Part shown: positions 2,448-6,920 of the stretch, one piece after another
How positions within the stretch are numbered: position 1 is the stretch's first letter
Layout of the letters: each line of letters starts with the position of its first letter
Virus record (IMG/VR): IMGVR_UViG_2547132488_000010
Location: 1-7,545 of that record
Length of the DNA stretch: 7,545 nt
Direction: 5' to 3' (one strand)
Source of the DNA: a virus
Lineage: Duplodnaviria; Heunggongvirae; Uroviricota; Caudoviricetes
Position numbers and translations under genes: made by a program
The notes under the pieces: generated by a model
The model's database searches: none
Told to the model about the DNA's origin: nothing
What the model saw: the letters and a program-made list of their open reading frames with translations, nothing else

Positions 2448-4589
2448 ATGGAGGGGCGGGAAGAAGGCGAAGCCTTTAACCGGCAGCTTGAGCTCACCGG
2501 ACACTATGCCGGTGTGACAGTCGGGCAGTTGTGGGCGCTCAGTAAAAATCTTTCCGGTAATGGCATCACGCAACATGCCATGGCGGGGTCACTGGCGCAG
2601 GTAGTGGGGAGCGGTGCATTTCACGGTAACGATATTGGTATGGTGGCGAAAGCTGCCGCACAGATGGAACGCTCGGTAGGGCAGTCTGTCAGTGACACCA
2701 TCAGTCAGTTTAAACGGCTGAAGGATGATCCGGTCAGTGCTGCGAAGGCGCTGGATGATGAACTGCATTTTCTGACAGCCACCCAGCTTGAACAGATCCG
2801 TGTGCTCGGAGAGCAGGGGCGCACCAGTGACGCCGCCCGGATAGCCATGTCTGCACTGGCAGAGGAAACCGGTAAACGTACGTCGGATATTGATAATAAC
2901 CTCAATGCGCTGGGCAGTACGCTGCAAACCTTGTCTGACTGGTGGAAGCAGTTCTGGGATGCGGCCATGAACATTGGTCGGGAAGATTCCCTTGATGCGC
3001 AGATTGCGTCGCTGCAGGAAAAAATTCAGCGGGCGAAGAAATTTCCGTGGACTAAGGCGTCCACCACGGTGGAATACGATCAGCAACAACTGGATGCGCT
3101 GCAAGAGCGAAAGCGCCAGCAGGATTTGCAGGATGCAAAAGAGCAGGCTGAGCGAAATTATCAGGAGCAGCAGAAACGCCGGAATGCTGAAAATGCCGCG
3201 CTGAACCGGATGAACGAAACGGAAGCAGCACGACATCAGCGTGAAATTGCGCGTATTAATGCCATGCAGTACGCCGATCAGGCGGTCAGGGACGCAGCGA
3301 TACAGCGTGAAAATGAACGTTACGAAAAAGCCATTAAGAAAAAAACATCTGAAAACCGCAATGATGAAGCTACCCGGTTGCTGTTGCAGTACAGTCAGCA
3401 GCAGGCGCAGGTGGAGGGGCAGATCGCCGCCGCCAGACAGTCCGCGGGACTGACCACGGAAAAAATGACGGAAGCGCATAAGCAGCTTCTGGCCCTGCAG
3501 CAGCGTATCAGTGATTTAGCCGGTAAAAAGCTGACGGCAGATGAAAAAAGCGTGCTGGCGCATAAGGATGAACTGATTCAGGCGCTGACGCTGCTGGATG
3601 CAAAACAGCAGGAGCTGCAGAAGCAGACGGCGCTGAATGACCTTAAGAAAAAATCTATTCAGCTTGCCAGCCAGCTGGCGGAAGAGGAACGGACTCTGCG
3701 TCAGCAACATGACCTGGATATCGCCACGACAGGGATGGGGGATAAACAGCGTCAGCGATACCAGGCGCAGTTCAGTCTGCAACAAAAATACCAGCAGCAA
3801 CTGGAACAGCTGGAGCGTGACAGTAAGCAGAAAGGAACATACGGCACAGATGAATACCGGAATGCTGAGCAGATGCTGACAGACAGTCTTAACCGGCAAC
3901 TGAACGAAAACAGACGTTACTGGCAGGAGCAGGAACTGATGCAGGCAGACTGGAAAAACGGTGCCATGCGGGCGTTTCAGAATTTTACAGAGAGTGCGGA
4001 TAACGCGGCAGGTACCGCTGAGCAGATGTTTACAGCGGCATTTAACAGCGCAGGTAATGCACTGGCGACGTTCTGTACCACCGGAAAACTGAACTTCAAA
4101 TCCTTTACCGCCTCGCTCCTTTCTGATCTAGCAAAAATCATGTCGCAGATGGCCATGATGCAGGCAGTTAAGGGGATTGGTTCGGCGTTTGGCTGGGGGA
4201 GTGCAGCAGCTGCCAGCGTGACGCCAAATGCGGATGGCGGTGTTTATCAGTCTGCTGATTTGAGTCGCTACAGTGGCACGGTGGTTAACCGTCCGACGTT
4301 TTTTGCTTTTGCAAAAGGCGCGGGTGTGATGGGAGAAGCGGGGCCTGAAGCCATTCTGCCACTGCGTCGTGGTGCTGATGGCAAGCTGGGAGTTGTGGCG
4401 GATATTGGTGGTTCAGGTATGGTGATGTTTGCCCCGCAGTACAACATCGAGATCAATAACGATGGTACGAACGGGCAGATAGGTCCGGCTGCCCTGAAGG
4501 TGGTTTATGACCTCGGGAAAAAAGCAGCAGCGGACTTTATGCAACAGCAGTCCCGTGATGGTGGTCAGTTAAGCGGAGCGTATCGGTAA
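2448..4589 (+). CDS. H: Tail tape measure protein, C-terminal segment (second ORF of the frame-disrupted H-like gene)
   Basis: 713 aa from the first ATG, but the frame is open from 2373 and encodes a Gly-rich hydrophobic stretch (VIGGITAAVIGLGKAW) before that ATG. Q/E/R-rich coiled-coil core. C-terminus ...INNDGTNGQIGPAALKVVYDLGKKAAADFMQQQSRDGGQLSGAYR matches the lambda gpH C-terminus (...INNDGTNGQIGPAALKAVYDMARKGARDE...RDGGLFSGGGR) as I recall it. Stop TAA 4587-4589. Confidence 0.88.
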   Translation: MEGREEGEAFNRQLELTGHYAGVTVGQLWALSKNLSGNGITQHAMAGSLAQVVGSGAFHGNDIGMVAKAAAQMERSVGQSVSDTISQFKRLKDDPVSAAKALDDELHFLTATQLEQIRVLGEQGRTSDAARIAMSALAEETGKRTSDIDNNLNALGSTLQTLSDWWKQFWDAAMNIGREDSLDAQIASLQEKIQRAKKFPWTKASTTVEYDQQQLDALQERKRQQDLQDAKEQAERNYQEQQKRRNAENAALNRMNETEAARHQREIARINAMQYADQAVRDAAIQRENERYEKAIKKKTSENRNDEATRLLLQYSQQQAQVEGQIAAARQSAGLTTEKMTEAHKQLLALQQRISDLAGKKLTADEKSVLAHKDELIQALTLLDAKQQELQKQTALNDLKKKSIQLASQLAEEERTLRQQHDLDIATTGMGDKQRQRYQAQFSLQQKYQQQLEQLERDSKQKGTYGTDEYRNAEQMLTDSLNRQLNENRRYWQEQELMQADWKNGAMRAFQNFTESADNAAGTAEQMFTAAFNSAGNALATFCTTGKLNFKSFTASLLSDLAKIMSQMAMMQAVKGIGSAFGWGSAAAASVTPNADGGVYQSADLSRYSGTVVNRPTFFAFAKGAGVMGEAGPEAILPLRRGADGKLGVVADIGGSGMVMFAPQYNIEINNDGTNGQIGPAALKVVYDLGKKAAADFMQQQSRDGGQLSGAYR

Positions 4590-5631: not shown

Positions 5632-6375
5632 ATGACAGAGACAGAATCAGCGATTCTGGCGCACGCCCGGCGATGTGCGCCAGCGGAGTCGTGCGGCTTC
5701 GTGGTGAGAACGCCGGAGGAGGAAAGATATTTTCCCTGCGTGAATATCTCCGGTGAACCGGAGGATTATTTCCGGATGGCTCCGGAGGACTGGCTGCGGG
5801 CCAAAATGCAGGGTGAGATTGTGGCGCTGGTCCACAGTCACCCCGGTGGTCTGCCCTGGCTGAGTGAGGCTGACCGGCGGCTGCAGGTGCAGAGTGATTT
5901 GCCGTGGTGGCTGGTCTGCCGGGGTGAGATTCACAAGTTCCGCTGTGTGTCGCATCTCACCGGGCGTCGCTTTGAGCACGGGGTGACGGACTGTTACACG
6001 CTGTTCCGGGATGCTTACCATCTGGCGGGGATTGAGATGCCGGATTTTCATCGCGGGGATGACTGGTGGCGTAACGGTCAGAATCTCTATCTTGACAATA
6101 TGGAGGCGACGGGTTTTTACCGTGTCGCACTGACAGAGGCGCAGCCGGGCGATGTGCTGCTGTGCTGCTTTGGATCATCGGTGCCGAATCATGCCGCCAT
6201 TTACTGTGGCGGCGGCGAGCTGCTGCACCATATTCCTGAACAACTGAGCAAACGAGAGAGGTACACCGACAAATGGCAGCGACGCACACACTCCCTCTGG
6301 CGTCACCGGGCATGGCACGCATCTGCCTTTACGGGGATTTACAACGATTTGGCCGCCGCATCGATCTGCGTGTGA
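5632..6375 (+). CDS. K: Tail tip assembly protein K (lambda gpK family), MPN/JAMM-like plus NlpC/P60-like domains
   Basis: JAMM-type motif visible as HSHPGGLPWLSEAD (H-x-H-x7-S-x2-D). Downstream Cys and His (VTDCYTLF, NHAAIY, ELLHHIPEQ) fit an NlpC/P60-type Cys-His-His arrangement. C-terminus ...LLHHIPEQLSKRERYTDKWQRRTHSLWRHRAW... matches lambda gpK as recalled. Starts 5 nt after the L stop. Confidence 0.9.
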   Translation: MTETESAILAHARRCAPAESCGFVVRTPEEERYFPCVNISGEPEDYFRMAPEDWLRAKMQGEIVALVHSHPGGLPWLSEADRRLQVQSDLPWWLVCRGEIHKFRCVSHLTGRRFEHGVTDCYTLFRDAYHLAGIEMPDFHRGDDWWRNGQNLYLDNMEATGFYRVALTEAQPGDVLLCCFGSSVPNHAAIYCGGGELLHHIPEQLSKRERYTDKWQRRTHSLWRHRAWHASAFTGIYNDLAAASICV

Positions 6376-6920
6376 AAACGGGGGCCGAAGCCATCCGGGC
6401 GCTGGCCATGCAGATCCCGGCGTTTCGTCAGAAGCTGAGCGACGGCTGGTATCAGGTACGCATTGCCGGGCGGGATACAGGCGAAAACGAATTATCTGCC
6501 CGTCTTAATGAGCCGCTGGCAAATGGTGCAGTGATCCACATCGTACCGCGTCTGGCGGGTGCCAAAAGTGGCGGTGTGTTTCAGGCTGTGCTGGGGGCTG
6601 CGCTGATTGCGGTGGCATGGTGGAACCCTGTGGGCTGGCTGGGTGCCGCGGCTGTATCGGGTATGTATGCGGCAGGGGCCAGTATGATCCTGGGCGGTGT
6701 GGCGCAGATGCTGGCACCGAAAGCCAGAACTCCCCGCACACAGGCAACAGATAACGGCAAACAGAACACCTATTTCTCCTCACTGGATAACATGGTTGCA
6801 CAGGGTAATTCGCTGCCGGTGCTGTATGGCGAAATGCGCGTGGGGTCGCGGGTGGTTTCTCAGGAGATCAGCACGGCAGATGAAGGTGATGGTGGTCAGG
6901 TTGTGGTGATTGGTCGCTGA
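6273..6920 (+). CDS. I: Tail tip assembly protein I (lambda gpI family)
   Basis: MAATHTLPLASPGMARICLYGDLQRFGRRIDLRVKTGAEAIRALA... and C-terminus ...KQNTYFSSLDNMVAQGNSLPVLYGEMRVGSRVVSQEISTADEGDGGQVVVIGR are near-identical to lambda gpI as I recall it. Overlaps the 3' end of K by 103 nt in another frame. Alternative in-frame ATG at 6312 has no obvious RBS. Confidence 0.88.
   Translation: MAATHTLPLASPGMARICLYGDLQRFGRRIDLRVKTGAEAIRALAMQIPAFRQKLSDGWYQVRIAGRDTGENELSARLNEPLANGAVIHIVPRLAGAKSGGVFQAVLGAALIAVAWWNPVGWLGAAAVSGMYAAGASMILGGVAQMLAPKARTPRTQATDNGKQNTYFSSLDNMVAQGNSLPVLYGEMRVGSRVVSQEISTADEGDGGQVVVIGR

Follow-up and report, generated by a model that had tools for sequence, protein, structure and literature searches.

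Gene I of a lambda-type tail module probably starts inside gene K, and K appears to read through into it

Genes K and I of the 7,545-nt window (the whole stretch of viral DNA analysed here) are read out of frame from the same 103 nt, positions 6273-6375, which is the standard layout of lambda-type phages, already known and long annotated. The overlap is probably best explained as a lambda-type one, in which K carries a read-through tail and I is initiated at ATG 6273 on its own Shine-Dalgarno (SD) sequence. The comparisons described below are suggestive of double constraint on about 30 nt at most.

The window is a lambda-type tail module with the ORF order ...H, M, L, K, I, J, as in annotated phages, and a megablast of the region against phage records gave 268 matches, the best full-length one being mEp460_ev081 (93.9%). 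The two genes and the layout of their products are as follows.

5632..6375, + strand: gene K (gpK, tail tip assembly peptidase), an ORF of 247 aa closed by TGA 6373-6375; annotated in lambda, 434 and lambda imm434
gpK, Pfam domains: Prok-JAB/MPN (PF14464) at aa 4-105, NlpC/P60 (PF00877) at aa 111-224, then a 23-residue tail
6273..6920, + strand: gene I (gpI), an ORF of 215 aa
gpI, layout: 13-residue leader; ubiquitin-like pro-domain, aa 14 to ~97; Gly-rich/hydrophobic linker; C-terminal tip-plug domain

The JAMM motifs ESCGF, HSHPGG and SEAD and the NlpC/P60 Cys-His motifs DCYTL and NHAAIY are visible in the translation of K; with both peptidase domains and their catalytic motifs present, the ORF can be assigned to gpK, its catalysis being predicted. 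The product of I matches PF06805 (Lambda_tail_I; E = 1.5e-23, aa 14-97) and, in the PDB, lambda gpI of entry 8iyk (8iyk_I; E = 1.8e-107), with 9e7m matching as well. An AlphaFold2 model of gpI shows aa 1-13 as a coil without secondary structure, beta-1 at aa 14-19 and a beta-grasp-like E-H-E-H...E pattern, with pLDDT >90 for about aa 11-90, and G96/G108 are invariant in the family alignment. I lies between K and J in the module, the location of gpI, and we identify it with lambda gpI, or TAPI, a protein with a ThiS/MoaD-like ubiquitin-fold domain ending in a conserved Gly, a linker and a tip plug (for the TAPI domain see Iyer et al. 2006, PMC1779556).

The ORF coordinates bear out the 103-nt overlap that the first-pass annotation had reported, and the sequence likewise confirms that the K frame has no earlier stop. 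The lambda reference (NC_001416) has K at 14276..14875 and I at 14773..15444, hence the same 103-nt overlap, and this is also annotated in 434, lambda imm434, Stx2a_WGPS2 and phage 2851. Lambda and the window have in common the genes, the L-K-I-J synteny, both candidate ATGs of I, the SD and an identical first 35 residues of gpI. They differ as alleles do, being about 92-94% identical in nucleotides across K and the start of I, and their gpI proteins (215 aa in the window, 223 aa in lambda) reach only 78% amino acid identity because the mid-region is variable. The RefSeq lambda K begins at an internal Met, whereas the window ORF and the phage 434 record include the full JAB domain. That RefSeq start (14276, 199 aa) corresponds to Met49 of the window ORF, nt 5776, and omits the first 48 JAB residues, among them the ESCGF glutamate; the 434 record holds the 247-aa form.

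Outside this group the arrangement differs. In phi80, the T1-like phage haarsle, Dhillonvirus bov15_1, Serratianator and PseuP_224, K and I are homologous and adjacent, the overlap is 4-20 nt, and K ends at the end of NlpC/P60 without a tail, unlike in the window. Overlaps of the ATGA type or of 8-20 nt have a size generally tied to termination-reinitiation coupling, which is not so for the 103 nt of the window: here K stops 100 nt downstream of the I start, and the ATGA/TGATG-type feature present in many relatives is absent. Lambda Rz/Rz1 and phiX174 D/E, which are overprinted or out-of-frame pairs, and the dual start of lambda S107/S105 are cases in which both products are functional over shared DNA. 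The window resembles them in that one DNA is read in two frames or from two starts, but differs in that most of the shared DNA would serve I while the K frame looks like read-through.

The bare ORF geometry of the overlap is not beyond chance. The I frame, which is the -1 frame of K, is open from 6240. With the K protein fixed, 72% of synonymous recodings left 13 or more codons of the I frame open upstream, and 45% of all recodings contained an in-frame ATG within the open upstream stretch. With the I protein fixed, 77% of recodings left the K frame open for 20 codons or more beyond ATG 6312, the median being exactly 20. Since open frames are thus expected by chance, evidence of use must rest on conservation among relatives. 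Position 1 of the I codons falls on position 3 of the K codons, and position 3 of I on position 2 of K, an offset that makes selection on each frame separable.

We compared the two candidate starts of I across 154 distinct intact K/I junctions drawn from IMG/VR and genome contigs. Two contigs (L038, L040) that had seemed to be distant relatives with both ATGs were dropped as frameshifted pseudogene copies. The elements concerned are these.

6237-6239, + strand: TGA closing the I frame upstream, which limits any I start to 6240 or later
6254..6261, + strand: putative SD for I, GAGAGAGG, 11 nt before ATG 6273; anti-SD duplex -9.3 kcal/mol
6312..6314, + strand: second in-frame ATG (Met14), first residue of beta-1; no SD, anti-SD -1.5 kcal/mol
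Leader peptide of gpI: AATHTLPLASPG; the product from 6273 (lambda 14773) would begin (M)AATHTLPLASPGMAR, (M)AATHTLPL
Product of a 6312 start (lambda 14812): would begin (M)ARICLYGDLQR

ATG 6273 is present in 154/154 junctions, and GAGAGG/GGGAGAGG upstream of it is kept in 152 of them. The SD core, GAGAGG at 6256-6261, lies inside the K codons R208-E209-R210, the Arg codon used being AGG, and its duplex (-9.3 kcal/mol) falls in the top 3.9% of window positions and is comparable to those of genes H and L. In the Stx-type junction the duplex at the first ATG reaches -10.8 kcal/mol. An RBS of I, 10 nt before the I start, is annotated in the phage 434 and lambda imm434 records (OM418626, OL657226). 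The position of ATG 6312, by comparison, is ATG in 87/154 junctions (lambda-type and two Citrobacter) and CTG in 67/154 (Stx-type); the Stx2c phage 2851, an isolate, has CTG at this place (...ccgccaCTGgca...). The Stx-type loci have no other in-frame I start up to +60. Their next one is a GTG 20 codons further on, and a start there would remove beta-1, the family's most conserved strand, so that only the first ATG is left to encode this invariant strand. From the SD and from the loss of the second ATG in the Stx-type clade, we infer that I is translated from the first ATG. ATG 6273, which the first-pass annotation had preferred, is the better supported of the two on account of its universal presence, its real SD and the CTG that a whole clade carries at 6312, and it is probably the main start of I.

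The first-pass annotation had also pointed, with correct arithmetic, to the start at ATG 6312, which would shorten the overlap to 64 nt; the upstream ATG would then be an accident of the Lys-Trp codons of K (AAA TGG), as the appearance of an in-frame ATG in 45% of synonymous recodings allows. Such a start would agree with the Pfam domain and the predicted fold, both of which begin at aa 14, with nearly all divergent homologs, which begin at the Met14 position, with the large NCBI clusters called there (P0058, 200 aa), and with the poor conservation of the 13-residue leader between clades. Moreover, the SD spacing of 11 nt at ATG 6273 is longer than optimal, and the second ATG is kept in each of the 87 lambda-type and Citrobacter sequences, the family otherwise starting there, so that some initiation at ATG 6312 may occur. 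We nevertheless regard a start at Met14 as unlikely: the site has no SD, 67 distinct Stx-type sequences, among them that of an isolated phage, have CTG there, the first ATG and its SD are almost universally kept, and the very DNA under the 200-aa calls carries both.

If lambda-type phages used both ATGs, making a long and a short gpI after the manner of lambda S107/S105, this would account for the conservation of both codons throughout the 87 lambda-type and Citrobacter sequences; the short form would be the family-wide protein. However, the second ATG lacks an SD and is dispensable in the Stx-type clade (CTG in 67 sequences), which departs from the S107/S105 pattern. In addition, this Met opens strand beta-1, which may be reason enough for its retention, and the literature searches gave no experimental hint of two forms. 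We consider this reading improbable. Those searches returned nothing on the I start or on the K/I overlap, and the mass-spectrometry supplement of PMC10721106 contains one gpI peptide, listed without its sequence.

The relatives of gpI indicate how the upstream start may have arisen. A scan of 1.84 billion representative proteins gave 3144 gpI relatives, and in the full-length ones (32-47% identity) query aa 14-17 almost always aligns to the relative's own residue 1-5. Most relatives have their I start 0-4 codons from Met14, preceded by an SD of -5 to -12 kcal/mol; relative to the Met14 codon, their K stop lies at -15 to +14 nt. Since the domain begins at Met14 and the homologs start there, the 13-residue leader would be a lineage-specific addition, and the model of gpI predicts it to be unstructured.

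Three relatives have a longer overlap. A stop codon immediately precedes the I start of ES18 and mEp013, which is at the Met14 position, and their K runs on for 58 nt beyond it; in an IMG/VR contig (L060) whose gpI is about 44% identical, TGA TAA directly precedes the I ATG and K ends 64 nt later. As in the window, K of these three extends 58-64 nt into I with the same frame offset. The HS.WR motif of K lies just upstream of their I start; unlike the window, they have no 13-residue leader. In L060 and ES18 the SD of I is a GGAG placed inside the conserved Trp-Arg of K (TGG AGA); the Arg codon of the window is CGT, so the GGAG that would serve a Met14 start is gone.

We therefore propose the following order of steps, read from the distribution of states among the sampled lineages rather than from a rooted phylogeny. 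The ancestral layout would have been a short coupling overlap, with the K stop a few codons from an I start at the Met14 position. One lineage (ES18, mEp013, L060, lambda) may then have lost the K stop, so that K reads 58-64 nt into I. The branch leading to the lambda, Stx and Citrobacter types would next have lost the GGAG serving Met14 (TGG AGA to TGG CGT) and have shifted I initiation 39 nt upstream. A related lineage among the IMG/VR contigs (L046-L058, e.g. L046 1140-2151) carries, in this order, L, a JAB-only ORF of about 125 aa without NlpC/P60, I and J; its gpI has no Met at the beta-1 position, and the leader, of 12-14 residues, is variable in both length and sequence.

For the question of constraint, the overlap falls into two parts.

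6273..6303, + strand: overlap part A, I codons 1-10 over K aa 214-224, the NlpC/P60 end QRRTHSLWR
6304..6375, + strand: overlap part B, K aa 225-247 and the TGA across I codons 11-35

The first-pass annotation had taken all 103 nt to be under double constraint, citing the conserved look of both translations, and had proposed a comparison of both frames across homologous phages. The conserved look proves nothing of the kind: FTGIYNDLAA in K mirrors the I motif YGDLQRFGRR in the other frame, and TGIYNDL looks conserved because YGDLQRFG is being read one base off. The proposed comparison, which we carried out, indicates an unconstrained K tail in 6304-6375, where the I frame dominates, and leaves at most 6273-6303 with a suggestive signal in both frames.

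In 85 lambda-type sequences, none of the common polymorphisms at 6315-6373 alters gpI and all of them change the K protein, often radically: H229R (24), Y237C (27), A241V (15), T/I245 (23), F/C246 (19) and V247E. Changes that replace I residues occur there as rare variants only, and gpI aa 1-35 are identical in 75 of the 85 sequences, against a dozen versions of the K tail. Second-position sites of K are variable at 10/19 in the tail and 31/107 in the K domain. The tail of ES18 is unrelated in sequence to that of the window, most relatives have no tail, and the tail length is what chance read-through would give (P = 0.77). Given common polymorphisms that are silent in I and replacing in K, and an unrelated tail in ES18, the tail of K behaves like a passenger, with the I frame apparently under selection in 6304-6375. 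A dual-coding stretch would be depleted of variation in both directions; here I-synonymous, K-replacing polymorphisms are common, which implies that only I is constrained in this part.

That the whole 103 nt is truly dual-coding, with K aa 225-247 forming a functional peptide under its own selection, might be argued from the stop at +64, which is common to lambda-type, Stx-type, Citrobacter and the distant L060, and from a somewhat lower variability of I-synonymous sites in +3..+35 (4/11, against 27/38 for I-only sequence). The radical Y/C, F/C, T/I, H/R and V/E polymorphisms, all silent in I, the greater variability of K second positions in the tail than in the domain, the unrelated or missing tails of relatives and a length equal to the chance expectation speak against it, and we consider it improbable.

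In part A, K is clearly constrained to about R224: it differs between clades at 1/10 residues, and L060 and ES18 retain its HS.WR motif. The I leader over the same DNA differs at 4-7/10 residues between clades, like unconstrained sequence, which suggests little long-term constraint on the leader peptide at that distance. A within-clade test, in which K-synonymous sites of the leader were variable at 0/12 and 1/12 against 66/107 and 60/107 in K-only sequence (P ~1e-5), was withdrawn as biased, because the clades are defined by the adjacent codon of the second ATG and linkage deflates diversity there; between clades, K-synonymous divergence in the leader interval is normal. A classification-free count over 152 sequences found rare K-synonymous variants at 0/12 sites in 6273-6303 and at 28/107 elsewhere in K (binomial P = 0.026, Fisher P = 0.067), a zero also reached in 2/95 control windows. 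The leader interval has 9 haplotypes, the fewest of any 36-nt window (others 14-51). RNA structure was rejected as a cause of this invariant block (z = +1.1).

It is possible, and we offer it tentatively, that the leader is a young coding segment created by the 39-nt upstream shift of the start and now selected within each clade, with Met14 perhaps serving as a minor start. If so, 6273-6303 would be a small, true dual-coding patch, a minor start at Met14 would give two gpI precursors, and the locus would offer a dated, stepwise growth of an overlap by stop loss followed by start migration.

A programmed -1 frameshift in the overlap, producing a K-I fusion as G-T does upstream, is close to refuted. 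It would fit the position of I in the -1 frame of K and the existence of K-I fusion ORFs in databases, as well as the rare fusions of TAPI to TAPK or TAPJ, including a TAPI-JAB of an E. coli prophage (Iyer et al., PMC1779556). However, where both frames are open (6238-6372) the K frame contains no X XXY YYZ heptamer of the kind found at the lambda G-T junction (GGGAAAG), the only run of at least four identical bases is GGGG at 6333, no stable RNA structure is predicted (z = +1.1), and I has its own SD and ATG. The database fusions, moreover, stem from differing deletions of 2 or 8 nt, none seen on more than one contig, and K is truncated in several. Six such ORFs were seen (P0006, P0007, P0020, P0042, P0047 and P0050), with junctions at the equivalents of window 6250-6300; examples of the deletions are one AG lost from the GAGAGAGG repeat and AC lost from TACACC, and several of the six are also without the K N-terminus.

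In the preferred reading, K would be translated from 5632 past the end of NlpC/P60 (residue 224, nt 6303) and on through 23 more codons to the TGA at 6373, and I would be initiated at ATG 6273 from its own SD as ribosomes translating K move across it. Initiation of I would then be independent of K termination, unlike in the termination-coupled relatives. K itself would be made by coupling to L, to judge from an ATG that lacks an SD (+0.7 kcal/mol) and follows the L stop by 5 nt.

The gpI product would begin with the unstructured 13-residue leader followed by the N-terminal ubiquitin-like domain. gpK is absent from virions and is a non-virion assembly peptidase, and of the gpI in the tail tip only residues about 134-223 are seen, the N-terminus not being resolved in virions. 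The JAB domain of K has been predicted to cleave after the C-terminal glycine of the ubiquitin-like domain (Iyer et al., PMC1779556), and in the F-pyocin homolog PA0640 the N-terminal domain is removed during tip maturation. The absence of the N-terminal part of gpI from virions, together with the predicted cleavage, implies that the overlap encodes the start of a transient pro-domain; the N-terminal domain of gpI is probably removed during assembly.

The main value of these results lies in annotation. The comparison favours the longer gpI in lambda- and Stx-type phages, while the short call is correct for ES18-like phages and most other relatives. At present, identical junction DNA (L260-L264, 401-1003; P0058 vs P0003) is given an NCBI gpI of either 200 aa or 213-215 aa, the 200-aa cluster P0058 having 1198 members on DNA that carries the first ATG and SD. 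A third set of calls (P0067) gives 182 aa from the equivalent of GTG 6372, a start that would delete the invariant beta-1. For sequence scans in general, two conserved-looking translations over one stretch do not demonstrate double constraint, since a motif such as YGDLQRFG in one frame forces apparent conservation (TGIYNDL) in the other. When lambda tail genes are recoded, the sensitive part would be 6254-6303, which holds the SD and the end of the K domain; K codons 225-247 appear free to change if I is preserved.

Two further features of the window concern neighbouring genes. The tape-measure gene H is split into ORFs 1556-2440 and 2448-4589, in different frames, at a run of nine G (2392-2400), a site that is one base shorter (GGT-GGGGGGAG) in E. 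coli RM11911, a relative in which the gene is intact (1007-aa tape-measure protein); the split is either a homopolymer sequencing error or a +1 frameshift mutation, as in a defective prophage. At the end of G (1237-1243), the window reads the non-canonical heptamer G GAA AAG where the lambda G/T junction reads G GGA AAG (L270, 410-416); the T frame (-1) is open there, and the G allele is a shorter one, of 129 aa.
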